Source: a virus
Lineage: Duplodnaviria; Heunggongvirae; Uroviricota; Caudoviricetes
DNA: 5,813 nucleotides
Strand: one strand, 5' to 3'
IMG/VR virus record: IMGVR_UViG_2690316152_000004
Location: 1-5,813 of that record
This document shows, in pieces, positions 1 to 5,813 of this stretch. Position numbers and translations under genes: made by a program. The number at the start of each line of letters is the position of its first letter. The first letter of the stretch is position 1. The notes below the pieces were generated by a model, which saw only the letters and a program-made list of their open reading frames with translations, made no database searches and was not told where the DNA came from.

Positions 1-41
1 AGCGCAGGCTGATTACGCAGTACCTGTTCGATCTTCGCTTT

Positions 42-180
42 CTAGGAAGCCTCACATTCACCATCTGCACAGGCCACCAGGTATGCGGCGTTAATCACCA
101 CCTGTGCCAGATCGCGTTTTTCAAACTTTTTAATTTCCGTTGCCGCTCTGCGGGCTTTTTTTACCAAAAATACCAAACAT
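42..180 (-). other. Possible small ORF interrupted by a frameshift at an A7 homopolymer (would encode about 45 aa if the run were A6)
   Basis: ATG at 180..178 sits 8 nt downstream of AAGGAA. In frame it reads MFGIFGKKSPQSGNGN then stops at 132..130. The +1 frame after the A7 run (+ strand T-run 156-162) continues as KKARRAATEIKKFEKRDLAQVVINAAYLVACADGECEAS to a TAG at 44..42. No homology recognised. Confidence 0.25.
142..162 (+). terminator. Weak intrinsic-terminator-like hairpin plus T7 tract on the plus strand
   Basis: GCCGC-TCT-GCGGGC forms a 4-5 bp GC stem, followed by TTTTTTT at 156-162. The stem is short and it lies inside the candidate minus-strand small ORF. Confidence 0.25.
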
Positions 181-310
181 CGTGACGTTCCTTTGGGTGG
201 GTGAGCCAACGCCCGGGAGCGATCTGCCCACAGAGAAAGTCACACTGACCACTCCGTAAGCTCACCCCCGAAAGGCTCTGTGGTTGATATGCACCGGGCG
301 TGGCGCAGAT

Positions 311-338
311 ACAAAAAAGGCCCGCCGAAGCGAGCCTG
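311..338 (-). terminator. Rho-independent terminator directly downstream of the tRNA pair
   Basis: Minus-strand RNA reads GGCUCGC-UUCG-GCGGGCC (7-bp stem with one G-U pair, UUCG tetraloop; + strand 319-336) followed by UUUUUU (311-318). Confidence 0.7.
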
Positions 339-349
339 GAAAATAAGTG

Positions 350-426
350 TGGCGCGTTGTAGTGGAGTCGAACCACTGACCGATTGCTTAGAAGGCAATT
401 GCTCTGTCCGGCTGAGCTAACAACGC
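350..426 (-). tRNA. tRNA-Arg, anticodon UCU (reads AGA)
   Basis: Reverse complement gives a 77-nt cloverleaf: acceptor GCGTTGT/ACAACGC, D-arm GCTC...GAGC, anticodon stem ATTGC/GCAAT with loop CTTCTAA, T-arm AGTGG-TTCGACT-CCACT, discriminator G and encoded CCA. It resembles the argN/argO-type tRNAs found downstream of Q in lambdoid and Stx prophages. Confidence 0.9.
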
Positions 427-526
427 AGAATACCGATAATGGACCGCCATCGGGGACCCGCCCCCGCACCAACAACCCTGTTATGGTGTCGTCTGCTCTT
501 CCTGATAAGCTAATGGCGGTATGTGA

Positions 527-602
527 TGGTGGCCCTTGCTGGATTTGAACCAGCGACCTGGCGATTATGAGTCGCTCGCTCTCACCACTGAGCTAAAGGG
601 CC
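527..602 (-). tRNA. tRNA-Ile2 (anticodon CAU, lysidine type; formally CAT, so Met cannot be excluded from sequence alone)
   Basis: Reverse complement is GGCCCTTTAGCTCAGTGGTGAGAGCGAGCGACTCATAATCGCCAGGTCGCTGGTTCAAATCCAGCAAGGGCCACCA, 76 nt, with a perfect 7-bp acceptor stem, anticodon loop CTCATAA and T-loop TTCAAAT. It is closely similar to E. coli ileX/ileY-type tRNA-Ile2 as I recall it, not to elongator or initiator tRNA-Met. Confidence 0.88.
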
Positions 603-651
603 GGGACCAGAATAATAATGGTGCGAAATTAATTCTGCAATCTCATCCGTT

Positions 652-1701
652 TCAAACGATTAAATCCTGAACTTCCCTGACTGTCTGCTCAAAACGTTCA
701 GTCTCCAGCTCAACGCCAATTGCACGACGCCCGAGCGCCAGTGCCGCTTTTACCGTTGAACCTGAGCCCATAAAAAAATCTGCAACCAGGTCACCCGGAC
801 GACTGCTTGCGCTGATTATCTGCTGCAGCATTTCTGCCGGTTTTTCGCACGGATGTTTCCCGGGATAGAACTGCACCGGTTTATGTGTCCACACATCCGT
901 GTACGGCACCTGCGCCGTCACACCAAAATACCGCCGCAGATGCTTATATTCACTCTGCAGCTCCGCATACTGTCGGTTCAGAGAGGCATACGTATCCACC
1001 AGCTGGTGGTGGGGCTTTTCCAGTTCACCCCGCTGATGCTTCTCTTCTGCCACCCGGGCAAACAGTGCCTGTAATTTCAGATAATCGCTTTCGTTCGGCA
1101 GCTGCCACTGACCGGCACTGAACCAGTGCGACACCATGTTTTTCTTTCCTGTGGCATCTGCAATCTGTTTTGCCGTTATCCCCAGGACAGCGCGCGCATC
1201 ACGAAAGTAAGCAATCAGCGGGGCCATCACATGCTGTTTCAGTGCCCTACCCTTCGCCTCATACCCGGCATCTTTCGGACGATACGGCCCCTGATAATGC
1301 TCTGCGAACAGAATGCGCTCTGTGGCGGGGAAATACGCCCGCAGGCTTTCCTTGTTGCACCCGTTCCAGCGTCCGGACGGCTTTGCCCAGATGATATGGT
1401 TCAGCACGTTAAACCGCTCACGCATCATGATTTCGGTGTCAGATGCCAGACGATGGCCACAGAACAGGTAAAGACTTCCGGCAGGTTTCAGCACCCGCCA
1501 GAACTGCGCAAGACACTGGTCCAGCCACTTCAGGTAATCTTCATCACCCGCCCACTGGTTATCCCAGCCCTCGGGTTTCACTTTGAAGTACGGCGGGTCC
1601 GTGACTATCAGGTCAACAGAATTTTCGGGTAACGACCGCATAAATTCCAGGCAGTCGGCGTTGATTAACTCACAACTGGATATTTTTACAGTATTAAGCA
1701 T
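652..1701 (-). CDS. Orphan DNA N6-adenine methyltransferase, beta class (349 aa)
   Basis: ATG at 1701 and TGA at 652. Motif IV DPPY lies near the N-terminus (LIVTDPPYF) and motif I FxGSGS near the C-terminus (FFMGSGSTVKAA), the beta-class order. No restriction endonuclease gene is adjacent. Its position between Q and the tRNA genes matches prophage-encoded methylases. Confidence 0.85.
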   Translation of the reverse strand: MLNTVKISSCELINADCLEFMRSLPENSVDLIVTDPPYFKVKPEGWDNQWAGDEDYLKWLDQCLAQFWRVLKPAGSLYLFCGHRLASDTEIMMRERFNVLNHIIWAKPSGRWNGCNKESLRAYFPATERILFAEHYQGPYRPKDAGYEAKGRALKQHVMAPLIAYFRDARAVLGITAKQIADATGKKNMVSHWFSAGQWQLPNESDYLKLQALFARVAEEKHQRGELEKPHHQLVDTYASLNRQYAELQSEYKHLRRYFGVTAQVPYTDVWTHKPVQFYPGKHPCEKPAEMLQQIISASSRPGDLVADFFMGSGSTVKAALALGRRAIGVELETERFEQTVREVQDLIV

Positions 1702-1837
1702 GGATCATTAAGCCTGTCTCTGATAGGCTCATTCTGCTTTTGCGCAAAGCAGTGGGCCTGAGGTTTGCTTGTGAACCCAACGCATGAGCAGATGGCTGGT
1801 GGGTGCCCCTTACACCCACCAGCCGCCCATTTACCAC

Positions 1838-1866
1838 AAATAAAAAAGCCTTCAGGACTGAAGGCG
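1838..1866 (-). terminator. Rho-independent terminator at the 3' end of the small HTH-like ORF
   Basis: Minus-strand RNA reads GCCUUCA-GUCC-UGAAGGC (7-bp perfect stem; + strand 1848-1865) followed by UUUUUUAUUUG. The hairpin overlaps the last codons and stop of ORF 1852..2049. Confidence 0.65.
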
Positions 1867-2049
1867 TCTGTAACAACCAAACTGATAGTCTGCCAGACCC
1901 GCCATAACCAGCTGGGTCAGTATTAACTGGCAGCGTTCGCGTGAAAGGTAAGTATTCTGCGCAATCTCCCCGACTGTCGCCGGGTCGGTAACGCTTAATT
2001 CATTAAACACCACTCTGGCGGTTTCTGTCATATCCTGCTGTTTCAGCAT
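1852..2049 (-). CDS. Small hypothetical protein (65 aa) with a helix-turn-helix-like segment
   Basis: ATG at 2049..2047 is preceded by GGAAAAGGGAAAAAGAC (SD-like AAGGGA about 7 nt upstream). The protein is MLKQQDMTETARVVFNELSVTDPATVGEIAQNTYLSRERCQLILTQLVMAGLADYQFGCYRRLQS. The track ORF starting at 2172 begins on GTG inside the terminator and is unlikely. No family recognised. Confidence 0.5.
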   Translation of the reverse strand: MLKQQDMTETARVVFNELSVTDPATVGEIAQNTYLSRERCQLILTQLVMAGLADYQFGCYRRLQS

Positions 2050-2170
2050 GTCTTTTTCCCTTTTCCGGTTAACGTGACACACCAATAACTCTTGTCGAAA
2101 AAGCCAGCAACCTGAAAGAACGGTATTAATAACCACCAGCGAATTTATTGCGCTGCTGTATATTACGGAC

Positions 2171-2193
2171 ACAAAAAAACCACCTTCCGGTGG
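2171..2193 (-). terminator. Rho-independent terminator downstream of the Q-like gene (tR'-like by position)
   Basis: Minus-strand RNA reads CCACC-GGAA-GGUGG (5-bp GC-rich stem, GNRA-type tetraloop; + strand 2180-2193) followed by UUUUUUU (2173-2179), about 100 nt downstream of the Q-like stop. Confidence 0.75.
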
Positions 2194-2290
2194 CTTCCTT
2201 GTGCGAAAAAACTTGCATTTCGCCTCGCGATACAGCTTTGCGAAGCTTACAGGAATTCAAGCTGTTTCTGCGTAAAAAAGCAAGCTTTTT

Positions 2291-2833
2291 TTATCGAAAT
2301 GAATCGTGCATAGGTACATAAAGCATGTGTTCAGCCACGGCTAACCAACCTGCAATACGTTTCTCACATGTGCTGAAACACCATTCCGGGTGAGTACGAT
2401 TTAAACATTCTGCCATTTTTCTCTTACTCATTCCCCGTCCTTCGTACCTTTGCCGGAGAATATTGATTAGCCCGGGATATTCCCCAAGCACCTCACTGAT
2501 AACGCGATCAATAATCAACGCCTCTGTGTCTGTACAATGTGACAACCAGCTCTTCTGCTTCCCTCTGGTCATATCCCGAAAAAATGCCTCAAGTTCCGGT
2601 TTTTCCAGCCCGGATTTCTTCATGCTGCGTAAAACCTCATTAACTGCTGTTTTCGTCAGCTTTTTCGAAACCAGTAACCGGTTAAACATATTTCCGGATT
2701 TATCCCCACCGATATACGACCACCGCCCCCACATCCGTAATTTCCCCTGGATCCAGACTGCTTCCAGCGTGTTCAGGCGTAAATGTTCGCCGCTTTTGCC
2801 TGTAATTTCCGGATATATCATATTTACGCTCAC
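2291..2833 (-). CDS. Putative late-gene antitermination protein Q-like (180 aa)
   Basis: It lies immediately downstream of rusA with a GTGA stop/start overlap, and an alternative ATG is at 2821. It is followed by an intrinsic terminator, the classical Q to tR' arrangement. The N-terminal WGRW motif (LRMWGRWSYIGG) resembles the WGAW motif of Q21/QuuD-type antiterminators. The family call is from memory and position, not a search. Confidence 0.6.
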   Translation of the reverse strand: MSVNMIYPEITGKSGEHLRLNTLEAVWIQGKLRMWGRWSYIGGDKSGNMFNRLLVSKKLTKTAVNEVLRSMKKSGLEKPELEAFFRDMTRGKQKSWLSHCTDTEALIIDRVISEVLGEYPGLINILRQRYEGRGMSKRKMAECLNRTHPEWCFSTCEKRIAGWLAVAEHMLYVPMHDSFR

Positions 2834-3189
2834 TCACTCTCAATTTTGTAAATCTTCACACCCAGCCGTCCACCAGATACTGGCTGACCACGTACAATAT
2901 TGATTTCATCAAACTGCTCATCGTCCATTAGCACCCCCGCATGCGTCAGCGCATCCAGCGGCGCTTTCAGAATATTGTCCAGGTCACGGCGGCGCTTATC
3001 CGGTGGCTCGGCAATAATCTTTATCGCCAGCCTTCCGGACAGGTTTAATTTCAGCCGCTGCTGGCGAACAATAAGTGCCACATCCCGGCGATAACGCTCA
3101 CCGGCTTTTGATACAAAATATGTGCTGCCACGACGTCGCCAGTAGGTGTTCACCGTCGGCGGGTAAGGCAAAACAAACTCTATACGCAT
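2830..3189 (-). CDS. rusA: Crossover junction endodeoxyribonuclease RusA (Holliday junction resolvase), 119 aa
   Basis: ATG at 3189 with SD AAGAGG about 7 nt upstream; TGA at 2830. The translation carries RusA hallmarks (PPTVNTYW, DKRRRDLDNILKAPLDALTHAGVLMDDEQ), matching the remembered E. coli RusA motifs PDRRRRDLDN...DAL...DD. Confidence 0.92.
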   Translation of the reverse strand: MRIEFVLPYPPTVNTYWRRRGSTYFVSKAGERYRRDVALIVRQQRLKLNLSGRLAIKIIAEPPDKRRRDLDNILKAPLDALTHAGVLMDDEQFDEINIVRGQPVSGGRLGVKIYKIESE

Positions 3190-3201
3190 CAGTAACCTCT
3201 T

Positions 3202-4125
3202 TTACCCGAGCACGCCGGTTGCAAAGGCGTGATCAAGAAAACGAAAAATTAAATCAACCTGGGAACCATGCTTTTCTTCGAACGCCAGCGGATCCGCATG
3301 AAGCTCGTTGTGATGCTCCCGACACAGCGGTAGCGTGAAAATATCGTGGGATTTTGTTCCCATTCCGCCCTGACCATGACCAATCAGATGATGAGGATCG
3401 TCCGCTGGCTTACCACAACACGCACACGGCTGTGTCTTTACCCAGCGTGTGTATTTCTCATTTACCCAGCGGCGACGTTTAGGTCGTTTCATGAAGGATT
3501 CCGGAGACTCCGGATCAACGGCAATGCTTACCACCGTCTTTTCCTGTGGCGGGTTTTGCTGGTGGGCGTGAGGCAGCGGCGCAAGATTTTTTGTGCGCTG
3601 TTTCAGGATGCTGGTGGCTGTCTGTTCTCCCGGTATGATGTCGCTTTCGCGGTACACCGAGCGGATTTTTTCCGCACGTAACCCCAGAGAACGACGTAAT
3701 GCTGCCTCTGGTAGCGCATCCGCCACCTGATTGCAGACCGCCCACCAGGATAATTCACCCAGAGATAATTCCCGCTCCTGCGTGCCATTCATTGCATGGC
3801 GTATGACGTCAATCATCCATGCTGACAAATTTTGGTGAGCAAGTTGCCCGAGTGATTCGGAGGTCTGGTCACGCAACTGGTTGTCGCAGTGCCAGCACAA
3901 CACCATTGCGCCGGTACCATAACGGTGAATGACAGTTTCGCTGTGGTGATAATCGCCGTGTGGCCACTGGCAGGATTTAATATGGCGCAACAGCCAGTCA
4001 GACAATGCACCAGCACCACCAGCAGCACGAATCACTCGTTCGTCGCTGAAAAATGGCAGCAATGTTTTGTCTTCCACCAGCGGATGGCGAACGGCAGGAA
4101 CGACCCCGGACGGCAGATTACGCAT
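3202..4125 (-). CDS. ydfU: YdfU-like DUF968 protein with HNH-type Cys/His motifs, downstream copy (native C-terminus, N-terminus removed by the duplication junction)
   Basis: TAA at 3202. The first in-frame ATG after the duplication junction is at 4125..4123 (MRNLPSGVV...), giving 307 aa. The track's longer 345-aa form starts at TTG 4239 and reads the upstream copy's 3' end out of frame, so it is unlikely. C-terminal motif: CACCGKPADDPHHLIGHGQGG...CREHHNELH. N-terminal module: CQWPHGDYHH...CWHCDNQ. The YdfU/DUF968 assignment is by length, motif and Qin-like synteny (ydfU-rem-hokD), from memory. Confidence 0.7.
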   Translation of the reverse strand: MRNLPSGVVPAVRHPLVEDKTLLPFFSDERVIRAAGGAGALSDWLLRHIKSCQWPHGDYHHSETVIHRYGTGAMVLCWHCDNQLRDQTSESLGQLAHQNLSAWMIDVIRHAMNGTQERELSLGELSWWAVCNQVADALPEAALRRSLGLRAEKIRSVYRESDIIPGEQTATSILKQRTKNLAPLPHAHQQNPPQEKTVVSIAVDPESPESFMKRPKRRRWVNEKYTRWVKTQPCACCGKPADDPHHLIGHGQGGMGTKSHDIFTLPLCREHHNELHADPLAFEEKHGSQVDLIFRFLDHAFATGVLG

Positions 4126-4981
4126 GCTTTTCTTCGAACGCCAGCGGATCCGCATGAAGCTCGTTGTGATGCTCCCGACACAGCGGTAGCGTGAAAATAT
4201 CGTGGGATTTTGTTCCCATTCCGCCCTGACCATGACCAATCAGATGATGAGGATCGTCCGCTGGCTTACCACAACACGCACACGGCTGTGTCTTTACCCA
4301 GCGTGTGTATTTCTCATTTACCCAGCGGCGACGTTTAGGTCGTTTCATGAAGGATTCCGGAGACTCCGGATCAACGGCAATGCTGACCACCGTCTTTTCC
4401 TGTGGTGGGTTCTGTTGCTGGTGGGTGTGAGGCGGTAGCGCAATATTTTTTGTGCGCTGCTTCAGTATGCTGGTGGCGGTCTGCTCTCCCGGCACGATGT
4501 CGCTTTCACGGTACATTGAGCGGATTTTTTCCGCACGCCCCCCCAGCGAACGACGTAATACCGCTTCCGGTAGCGCGTCCGCCACCTGATTGCGGACCGC
4601 CCACCAGGATAATTCAGCCAAAGATAATTCACGCTCCTGCGTACCGCTTATTGCGTGACCGATGACGTCAATCATCCATGCTGACAGGTTTTGATGAGCA
4701 AGTTGCTCGAGTGATTCGGATGTCTGGTCACGCAGCTGGTTGTCGCAGTGCCAGCACAACACCATTGCGCCGGTACCATAACGGTGAATGACAGTTTCGC
4801 TGTGATGATAATCGCCGTGTGGCCACTGGCAGGATTTAATATGGCGCAACAGCCAGTCAGACAATGCACCAGCACCACCAGCAGCACGAATCACTCGTTC
4901 GTCGCTGAAAAATGGCAGCAATGTTTTGTCTTCCACCAGCGGATGGCGAACGGCAGGAACGACCCCGGACGGCAGATTACG
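3267..4981. repeat. Head-to-tail tandem duplication: two units of about 856 and 859 bp (3267-4122 and 4123-4981) inside the ydfU-like gene
   Basis: CATGCTTTTC occurs at 3267, 4123 and 4982. The units are identical for the first ~262 bp, differ at about 45 positions plus one 3-bp indel across the central ~350 bp, and show a single difference in the last ~240 bp. Confidence 0.9.
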
Positions 4982-5107
4982 CATGCTTTTCGGTTCCGGC
5001 TCCACCAGTACCCGGGTATTGTGAAATACCTGCATGGATTCACGACCTGGCTTAAGGGCCACCAGCCCGAGTTCCGGTACCAGAACAGGTCGAAGTAATA
5101 CCCGCAC
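4118..5107 (-). CDS. YdfU-like DUF968 protein, upstream copy (native N-terminus, C-terminus truncated at the duplication junction); possibly a pseudogene
   Basis: GTG at 5107 is preceded by a strong SD (TGGAGGT, about 5 nt spacing); an alternative ATG is at 5035. The protein ends ...LAFEEKHA then TAA at 4118, whereas the downstream copy continues ...LAFEEKHGSQVDLIFRFLDHAFATGVLG. Both Cys/His modules are retained. Confidence 0.7.
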   Translation of the reverse strand: MRVLLRPVLVPELGLVALKPGRESMQVFHNTRVLVEPEPKSMRNLPSGVVPAVRHPLVEDKTLLPFFSDERVIRAAGGAGALSDWLLRHIKSCQWPHGDYHHSETVIHRYGTGAMVLCWHCDNQLRDQTSESLEQLAHQNLSAWMIDVIGHAISGTQERELSLAELSWWAVRNQVADALPEAVLRRSLGGRAEKIRSMYRESDIVPGEQTATSILKQRTKNIALPPHTHQQQNPPQEKTVVSIAVDPESPESFMKRPKRRRWVNEKYTRWVKTQPCACCGKPADDPHHLIGHGQGGMGTKSHDIFTLPLCREHHNELHADPLAFEEKHA

Positions 5108-5108
5108 G

Positions 5109-5387
5109 TTACCTCCAGATCCGTTGCTGGAATGTGCGGGACGGACGCGGTGGGCGTTCGGAGTAAGGAAGCCTGACGGAGATTATCCAGTGACGGTAGT
5201 CGAGGCTGAGGGCTTTCTTAATCTCGTATCCGCGCCTGCGGTAACACTGAATCAGCCATTCAGCCTGTTCTTCGGTGCAGGGGTCGTGCTGATACCAGTC
5301 AGATTTGAATGCATGAGAACGCCGCCCGTGCCTGCTGGCAGGGGCGGCAGAGTTATCCGAATTGTAAAATTTGGTATCGTGCGCCAT
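5109..5387 (-). CDS. Small hypothetical protein (92 aa); Rem-like by position between hok and the ydfU-like gene
   Basis: The only in-frame ATG is at 5387..5385; the track start at 5516 is GTG and would place the hok terminator inside the ORF. TAA at 5109 lies 1 nt before the ydfU-like GTG. No motif recognised; the Rem assignment is by synteny with K-12 Qin only. Confidence 0.45.
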   Translation of the reverse strand: MAHDTKFYNSDNSAAPASRHGRRSHAFKSDWYQHDPCTEEQAEWLIQCYRRRGYEIKKALSLDYRHWIISVRLPYSERPPRPSRTFQQRIWR

Positions 5388-5460
5388 CTGTTTTCTCTGC
5401 TGGCGCAGCAGGTGCCAGTTGTTCAGGCTGACGGATGGATTGTAAACCAGAACGACCAGA

Positions 5461-5486
5461 AAAAACAAAACCCGCCGAAGCGGGTT
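5461..5486 (-). terminator. Rho-independent terminator downstream of hok
   Basis: Minus-strand RNA reads AACCCGC-UUCG-GCGGGUU (7-bp perfect stem, UUCG tetraloop; + strand 5469-5486) followed by UUGUUUUU (5461-5468). Confidence 0.7.
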
Positions 5487-5554
5487 AAGTGCGGGTGCGT
5501 TGAGGATGCCTGACACATCAGCGGTGGCGAGGGATTTCTCCCCCGCCTGGTCTC

Positions 5555-5710
5555 TTACTCCTCAGGTTCGTAAGCTGTGAAGACAGCGACCTCCGTCTGG
5601 CCGGTTCGGATTCGTACCTCGCAGAGGTCTTTCCTCGTTACCAGTGCCGTCACTATGACGGTTAAACAGATGACGATCAGGGCGATTAACATCGCCTTTT
5701 GCTGCTTCAT
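5555..5710 (-). CDS. hokD: Hok/Gef-family type I toxin (HokD/RelF-like), 51 aa
   Basis: ATG at 5710 with SD AGGAG about 10 nt upstream. The translation MKQQKAMLIALIVICLTVIVTALVTRKDLCEVRIRTGQTEVAVFTAYEPEE has the Hok single transmembrane helix and the conserved RKxLCE(V/I)R...G..EVA.F.AYE core, and matches my memory of E. coli HokD. The track's 64-aa form is a TTG-initiated in-frame extension. Confidence 0.9.
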   Translation of the reverse strand: MKQQKAMLIALIVICLTVIVTALVTRKDLCEVRIRTGQTEVAVFTAYEPEE

Positions 5711-5779
5711 AGCCTGCTTCTCCTGTGTAAGTTCACAGAGATATTGCAATTGCCTCCGGATAAGTAAGGGGAGATTGCA

Positions 5780-5813
5780 CTATGCAAATGCAGCATCTGA
5801 TGGTTGGCTATCC
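5780..5813 (-). CDS. 3' end of an upstream ORF running off the window edge (C-terminus ...DSQPSDAAFA)
   Basis: An open frame on the minus strand enters at the right edge and stops at TAG 5782..5780, about 70 nt upstream of hok. Only about 10 codons are visible. By Qin synteny relE would sit here, but the visible C-terminus does not match my memory of K-12 RelE (...VKRIL). Confidence 0.2.
   Translation of the reverse strand, partial: DSQPSDAAFA

Follow-up and report, generated by a model that had tools for sequence, protein, structure and literature searches.

The 5,813-nucleotide stretch of viral DNA analysed in this study (IMG/VR record IMGVR_UViG_2690316152_000004, positions 1 to 5,813; hereafter referred to as the window) represents the late-regulatory end of a lambdoid prophage, in which every listed gene lies on the minus strand, and it carries an intact gene for a beta-class adenine methyltransferase of 349 amino acid (aa) residues between a gene for a Q-like antiterminator and a pair of tRNA genes. 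Based on near-identity to characterised enzymes, the encoded protein is very probably a prophage copy of the M.EcoGI/M.EcoGII family, whose members methylate adenine without sequence specificity. Directly in front of its start codon lies a conserved candidate RNA leader, predicted to be structured, which we consider to be of greater interest than the methyltransferase gene itself.

Identity with the M.EcoGI/M.EcoGII family

The methyltransferase gene is real and intact, as the open reading frame (ORF) commences with ATG, encompasses 349 codons for amino acids and contains no internal stop codon. For its product Pfam yields N6_N4_Mtase (PF01555) alone, spanning residues 29-340 (E=3.6e-44; score 151.8 bits, cut-off 26.7). 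The motifs follow the order of the beta class, with motif IV ahead of motif I, and a structure model of the protein finds its best structural matches among the beta-class DNA methyltransferases M.BceJIV, CcrM, MboIIA and RsrI. Pfam match, motif order (DPPY before FFMGSGS) and fold therefore all uphold the class of N6-adenine-type methyltransferase to which a first-pass annotation of the sequence had assigned the gene; the inactivating change in motif IV or motif I which that annotation had envisaged as a counter-argument was not observed, both motifs being intact and invariant across 47 family members.

The assignment to the family is carried by identity over the full length of the protein. 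The window protein and the methyltransferase of prophage Phi4 of the sequence type 131 (ST131) strain EC958 are identical at 333 of 349 positions (95.4%), without gaps and with 16 substitutions. The Phi4 enzyme is M.EcoMV, which is 99% identical to M.EcoGI (PMC4659465), and its sequence (EC958_1545) was taken as an independent and clean reference beside the printed sequence of M.EcoGII, the latter originating from a machine-read supplementary table of PMC11551740 with evident reading errors. Against this printed sequence the window protein is collinear, equal in length (349 aa) and identical at no fewer than 325 of 349 positions (at least 93%). At least five of the 24 differences represent reading errors, because every natural homologue agrees with the window at these sites, which include His103, a garbled THKPVQ stretch and an extra Arg. 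When the errors are discounted, the true identity is therefore approximately 330/349; the two proteins thus differ by some 19 to 24 substitutions, 10 or 11 of which are located within aa 135-259.

M.EcoGI and M.EcoGII themselves are identical at 333 of 349 positions and are both reported as completely non-specific (PMC5778455). Since the distance between the EC958 protein and the printed M.EcoGII approximates this published distance, the three enzymes can be tied together, and an identity of 94-95% to both family-defining enzymes places the window protein inside their spread. M.EcoGII, a beta-class enzyme of 349 aa, originates from a cryptic prophage in E. coli O104:H4 C227-11; it methylates adenine in DNA irrespective of context and accepts single-stranded DNA, RNA and RNA/DNA hybrids as further substrates (PMC5778455, Murray et al. 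2018). It shares with the window enzyme the DPPY and FxGxG motifs as well as the prophage setting. Homologues with 92-94% similarity are tabled as ‘nonspecific’ in methylome work on Shiga toxin-producing E. coli (STEC) (PMC6602927).

The setting of the gene is likewise that of the family. In the M.EcoGI/M.EcoMV locus the order is hokD, DUF968, rusA, antiterminator, 65-aa ORF, methylase, tRNA-Ile and tRNA-Arg, which is the order of the window, and the leader RNA is present in EC958 also; the EC958 locus differs from the window in being devoid of a second DUF968 copy and in possessing an antiterminator gene of another type. No restriction endonuclease was found in the window, or within 9 kb on either side of the locus in a genome that is 100% identical to the window over positions 300-2300, and the earlier description of the gene as an orphan without an adjacent restriction endonuclease is thereby confirmed. 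The window enzyme thus combines the beta-class motif order and a full-length, collinear, high identity with residence in a lambdoid prophage that lacks a cognate restriction enzyme, as do M.EcoGI and M.EcoGII.

The first-pass annotation had considered the target of the enzyme to be unknown, a statement which is outdated, since its homologues M.EcoGI and M.EcoGII methylate adenine in any sequence. As the protein is 94-95% identical to two enzymes published as non-specific, its target would be any adenine, and the expressed gene would, given the non-specificity of the homologues, be expected to produce bulk N6-methyladenine (m6A) without a motif, and not a new m6A motif. That the window allele is an active methyltransferase can, by the same homology, be assumed with good confidence. 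The finding on the gene is in this sense already known: it is an ordinary and very common prophage enzyme.

Four solved enzymes, namely M.BceJIV (8URK), CcrM (6PBD), M.MboIIA (1G60) and M.RsrI (1EG2), have the catalytic fold and the motif order in common with the window enzyme, with an identity of only approximately 20% and a similarity confined to aa 8-142 and 261-343. All four are site-specific, and the region between the matched blocks comprises 166 aa in the window enzyme as opposed to 73 aa in M.BceJIV. The PDB copy searched contained no structure of the M.EcoGII family. Among NCBIfam models the best hit is YhdJ (PRK11524), the beta-class orphan of the E. coli chromosome with ATGCAT as its target, and a comparison with YhdJ-like enzymes had been advised at the outset. 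The window enzyme does not, however, belong to the YhdJ family: its score of 110.7 bits, obtained in two separate stretches (the best at aa 9-109), lies well below the cut-off of 292 of the equivalog model NF008572, and orthology is ruled out. The same applies to orthology with CcrM (equivalog model NF050803; 76.1 bits against 830).

Central domain, substrate and proposed role

The published AlphaFold model of M.EcoGII comprises a Rossmann domain (aa 1-134 and 260-349), a four-helix bundle with a helix-turn-helix (160-237) and a long charged linker; according to its authors, bundle and linker bind the backbone without base reading, while the protein elutes as a dimer (PMC11551740). The model of the window protein agrees with the published one in having a helical central region, with helices at residues 146-173, 177-184, 190-194 and 204-223 (predicted local distance difference test score (pLDDT) of 63-83) and a further helix at 231-255. 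Across these helices the pLDDT is only 55-83, and a four-helix bundle with a helix-turn-helix is a tentative reading for the window protein. In sequence, the central region is approximately 91-94% identical to that of the reference enzymes. The first-pass annotation had singled out a central stretch, KDAGYEAKGRALKQ...YKHLRRYF, as the target-recognition region. This stretch corresponds to aa 143-259 (window 925-1275, minus strand) and is indeed the right place; the part of the claim that does not hold is the sequence motif, as the corresponding region of the homologues confers no sequence specificity. We infer that the central domain replaces a target-recognition domain and would bind nucleic acid without regard to sequence.

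From these data and from the literature a mechanism can be proposed. By homology, the orphan enzyme would operate as an S-adenosylmethionine-dependent dimer. Its two Rossmann-fold portions (aa 1-134 and 260-349) would flip out the adenine and methylate it regardless of the flanking sequence, and the helix-turn-helix bundle in the centre would, together with the basic linker, grip the nucleic-acid backbone without reading bases. Judging from its position and from published work, the gene would be silent in the lysogen and transcribed only once Q carries RNA polymerase through the terminators following induction. The earlier placement of the gene between the Q-like gene (2291-2833) and the tRNA genes (527-602 and 350-426), in the late region, proved correct: the region is the Q-dependent late region, and in Stx2 phages this module is situated between Q and stx2. 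The stx genes are, according to published work, transcribed from the Q-dependent late promoter, and since stx2 lies downstream of the same module, the methyltransferase should be read only after induction; the terminator-like hairpins between Q and the gene suggest the same timing. Expression of M.EcoGI, M.EcoGII and M.EcoMV is published as absent from lysogens and as harmful when constitutive, and it is because of this harm to the cell that tight silencing would be needed. The structured leader before the start codon is probably a further layer of control. A burst of enzyme would then result in blanket m6A on replicating phage DNA, and the progeny would thereby be shielded from restriction systems sensitive to m6A, of which there are many. 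Such protection had been among the roles suggested by the first-pass annotation, and it agrees with what the literature proposes, although we found no demonstration of it there.

It is also conceivable, if improbable, that the physiological substrate is RNA, or RNA together with DNA, and that methylation of host or phage RNA late in infection, for example of rRNA, tRNA or mRNA, tunes translation or RNA stability, in place of or alongside DNA protection. In vitro, single-stranded RNA is a substrate of M.EcoGII, as are both strands of RNA/DNA hybrids (PMC5778455), and the activity of this enzyme on RNA is non-site-specific (PMC11551740); however, this activity is residual and weaker than that on DNA, and its variation among variants looks neutral. 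The surroundings of the gene are also suggestive of RNA, as it is flanked by phage tRNA genes and preceded by the structured RNA leader and by a small winged-helix-like ORF, and there is a precedent in a different Stx-phage methyltransferase, M.EcoPA8orf6770P, which is redirected to 16S rRNA by a winged-helix partner (PMC10810198). The latter is, like the window enzyme, a prophage-encoded adenine methyltransferase, occurs in STEC phages and has a winged-helix gene upstream, yet the precedent is of another family. Identity of the window enzyme with this rRNA methyltransferase (Gong et al., PMC10810198) is ruled out, since M.EcoPA8orf6770P is an MT-A70 family protein with a DPPW motif which is encoded in the early region and needs a partner subunit, whereas the window enzyme has a DPPY motif and is encoded in the late region.

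Non-specific methylation must furthermore be weighed against the view of the first-pass annotation, to which we attach very little probability, that the enzyme is a sequence-specific orphan in which the central domain recognises a motif not yet described. Site specificity is the rule among beta-class enzymes that carry a domain at this place, and M.PflMI (CCANNNNNTGG), the nearest site-specific relative in the literature, is a beta-class enzyme with a central domain and a similar predicted overall architecture (PMC11551740; compared here by description). In addition, the central domain of the window protein harbours two private substitutions, A172V and S197G, position 197 being Ser in at least 90% of the 47 members. 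Nevertheless, the 94-95% identity is gap-free and connects the protein to two non-specific enzymes that differ from one another to the same extent. M.PflMI is only approximately 27% identical to M.EcoGII and is without the highly charged linker (PMC11551740), which sets the non-specific enzymes apart from it and is present in the window protein. Moreover, reconstructed ancestors, far more distant than the window protein and of much lower identity, retain non-site-specific activity (PMC11551740).

It is hardly credible that the gene has by chance survived undamaged in a degenerating prophage as a silent remnant that no longer has a function. Such a view could appeal to the pseudogene state of the adjacent TerB-family gene, to the rearrangement of DUF968 and to the lack of expression of the characterised homologues in lysogens; however, the frame is full-length with all motifs invariant, the module also occurs in complete Stx2 phage genomes, and the protein retains 73-80% aa identity across genera while third codon positions are near-saturated (39-55%), a combination which argues for purifying selection.

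A number of observations nonetheless weigh against the interpretation of the gene as a late-expressed, non-specific methyltransferase with an anti-restriction role. The non-specificity of the window enzyme is deduced from homology, and A172V and S197G may have altered the activity of this allele. The structure model is moderately confident, with a mean pLDDT of 67 and values below 50 at residues 106-151 and 251-286; its mediocre quality is due to a shallow input alignment, and it is adequate for the fold but not for details of the central domain. A scan of window 200-2900 for sigma-70 consensus promoters returned no match and did not locate the late promoter. The TerB-family gene is a frameshifted pseudogene, which is a sign of prophage decay, and the prophage may thus be defective and the gene perhaps never expressed in this host. 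Finally, the anti-restriction role has the standing of a proposal even for M.EcoGII, and a literature search returned no paper in which hypermethylation of induced phage DNA by this enzyme was directly demonstrated.

A conserved, probably structured leader and a small upstream ORF

The leader that abuts the start codon (Table 1) is predicted to consist of a closing stem, a long hairpin, a second hairpin and two further hairpins. The 150-nt interval that separates the small ORF from the methyltransferase start shows 75-83% identity across genera and is thus more conserved than the adjoining methyltransferase coding sequence, for which the values are 66-77% overall and 39-55% at third codon positions. 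By means of a sequence profile the leader was recognised in 54 of 77 species-level loci, where it directly adjoins the start codon whether the small ORF is present or not. Covariation was assessed on an alignment of 49 distinct sequences, mostly from Enterobacteriaceae, in which 95.6% of the alignment cells are paired in the proposed structure. Fourteen pairs are changed on both sides, compared to 4.3±1.4 in shuffles (0/500) and 5-11 in slid controls, the shuffle statistic being one that ignores the relatedness of the sequences. In the long hairpin nine of the ten pairs covary, while one pair of the second hairpin is seen as C-G, A-U, U-A and U-G. The frequency of G-U pairs points to an RNA on the strand of the gene, and a covariance model of it scores far higher on that strand. 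The window copy has a folding energy of -60.4 kcal/mol (z=-4.4).

At its 3′ end the leader carries a conserved UGAUC[UC] directly before the AUG of the methyltransferase, and in the loci examined no Shine-Dalgarno sequence is evident before this start. RNAalifold reports a competing pairing of AUGGGC with GCUCAU, and GGUC may pair with GAUC, an interaction that would mask the nucleotides directly preceding the AUG. The same position holds a GATC (Dam site; window 1703-1706, minus strand), located 1 nt upstream of the ATG at 1699-1701 and kept in nearly all loci examined.

In a comparison of the window with Rfam (E<=1), the two tRNAs alone passed their thresholds and no match to the leader was obtained on the strand of the gene. 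The leader is accordingly regarded as a candidate regulatory RNA element that matches no Rfam family. That it constitutes an undescribed cis-regulatory RNA which controls how well the mRNA of a toxic, non-specific methyltransferase is translated or how long it persists is an attractive but tentative proposal, which we hold to be possible without claiming it as probable. It may function as a switch by means of the alternative pairings and the GGUC:GAUC contact over the bases before the AUG, and its partner may be the upstream winged-helix-like protein or the enzyme itself, binding or methylating the leader as feedback. The notion that the leader is universal in the methyltransferase family is not supported, given that the covariance model gives weak, mis-registered matches in Photorhabdus and almost none in Xenorhabdus.

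Three other identities were considered for the leader and rejected. The prophage anti-sRNAs (antagonists of small RNAs) AgvB and AsxR are located downstream of moron genes or of stx2B, and Pas small RNAs adjoin genes for the phage capsid and tail, positions that differ from that of the leader. Reading of the alignment likewise rules out that the leader is a gene for a short conserved peptide, since insertions and deletions break the short frames between species.

The 65-aa ORF upstream of the leader yields Pfam hits that are all sub-threshold and all to winged-helix families. Homologues precede the methyltransferase at a distance of 116-200 nt in 54 of the 77 loci; their identities go down to 37-50%, and they range from Escherichia to Xenorhabdus. 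The ORF diverges faster than the methyltransferase. The encoded protein could be a regulator or a partner of the methyltransferase. The stem of the terminator-like hairpin which overlaps its stop codon covaries between loci, being GCCTTC/GAAGGC in one form and GCCTCC/GGAGGC in the other.

Organisation of the late region and distribution of the module

Table 1. Features of the window, listed in the direction of transcription, with the observations on which each is based.
Feature	Position in window	Strand	Basis or remark
hokD	5555-5749	-	
ORF of 135 aa without an assigned family	between the hokD and DUF968 ORFs	-	
DUF968 ORFs, two overlapping	4118-5107 and 3202-4239	-	
rusA	2830-3189	-	
Q-like late antiterminator gene	2291-2833	-	DUF1133 (E=1e-109); Phage_antitermQ (E=1e-8); phrog_753, anti-termination protein Q-like
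Candidate late-leader terminator (tR'-like), hairpin CCACC-GGAA-GGTGG followed by T7, approximately 100 nt past Q	2170-2197	-	Read from sequence; palindrome also reported on the other strand
65-aa ORF, possibly winged helix-turn-helix	1852-2049	-	RefSeq coding sequence WP_000917750.1; phrog_331, no function
Terminator-like hairpin with T-run, overlapping the stop codon of the small ORF	1848-1865	-	Stem covaries between loci
Structured 5′ leader, approximately 130 nt, abutting the start codon	1702-1830	-	Conservation, covariation, folding z-score
Methyltransferase coding sequence, 349 aa, beta-class, probable M.EcoGI/M.EcoGII family	652-1701	-	ORF list, PF01555, near-identity, fold
Motif IV, DPPY, catalytic adenine-binding, aa 35-38	1588-1599	-	D35, P36, P37 and Y38 invariant (47 family members)
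Predicted central helical domain with helix-turn-helix, aa 160-237	991-1224	-	Limits from the published AlphaFold model of M.EcoGII (PMC11551740)
Predicted charged helical linker, aa 238-259, from central domain to C-terminal catalytic half	925-990	-	Model helix 231-255; segment pI 9.4; PMC11551740
Motif I, FFMGSGS, S-adenosylmethionine binding, aa 309-315	757-777	-	F309, F310, G312, S313, G314 and S315 invariant (47 family members)
tRNA, anticodon CAU, directly downstream of the methyltransferase	527-602	-	ARAGORN Met; Rfam tRNA, 72.5 bits; RefSeq tRNA-Ile
tRNA-Arg (UCU)	350-426	-	ARAGORN, Rfam, RefSeq
Terminator-like hairpin with T-run after the tRNA pair	318-337	-	

The tRNA with anticodon CAU is designated Met by ARAGORN as opposed to tRNA-Ile by RefSeq on an identical gene, and in the latter case would be of the lysidine-modified type; its neighbour is tRNA-Arg(UCU), a pairing also seen in the tRNA clusters that precede stx2. 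Positions 1-176 (minus strand) correspond to the start of the TerB-family gene. In the identical genome RefSeq marks this gene as a pseudogene containing an internal stop, and the downstream neighbours there are this pseudogene, DUF3927, a large DUF6645 gene, a holin and a lysozyme.

The DUF968 (ydfU-like) gene has undergone a partial tandem duplication (3202-5107, minus strand), the repeats being located at 3267-3855 and 4123-4714 with a spacing of approximately 856-859 nt. The halves are 98% and 87% identical, resulting in overlapping ORFs of 345 and 329 aa. In the closest complete genomes a single copy of DUF968 is found, within 2155 bp versus 3014 bp in the window. A sub-threshold match to the isrK family of Hfq-binding small RNAs (27.2 bits, gathering score 50; E=0.007) is located at 5465-5546 (minus strand), between hokD and the 135-aa ORF.

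The module is widely distributed. Of 5426 complete E. coli genomes, 1750 contain a match that covers at least 80% of window 300-2300, and genomes with any match to this segment have it at a median of two places; the whole window matches 316 phage records, mostly of Stx2-converting phages. In E. coli the order is Q, small ORF, methylase, tRNAs and lysis genes, and in a Stx2d phage it is Q, 65-aa ORF, ‘DNA methylase’, three tRNAs, stx2A, stx2B and holin. Klebsiella and Erwinia prophages carry a homologue between an antiterminator gene and holin/lysis genes, the antiterminator families being different, while in the Salmonella prophage examined the homologue follows just downstream of the DUF968 gene, an unassigned 207-aa ORF and the small ORF.

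Enzymes of the M.EcoGII type are sold as reagents and are widely used in chromatin and RNA footprinting. As one more copy of a characterised enzyme family, the methyltransferase gene of the window is in itself of little consequence, while for the natural control and the natural role of the enzyme we found no demonstration in the literature. In Stx2 phages the gene lies on the path of the late transcript to stx2, and its terminators and leader would thus form part of the road to toxin expression. The leader and its companion small ORF provide testable handles on the manner in which phages keep a dangerous enzyme switched off until lysis.

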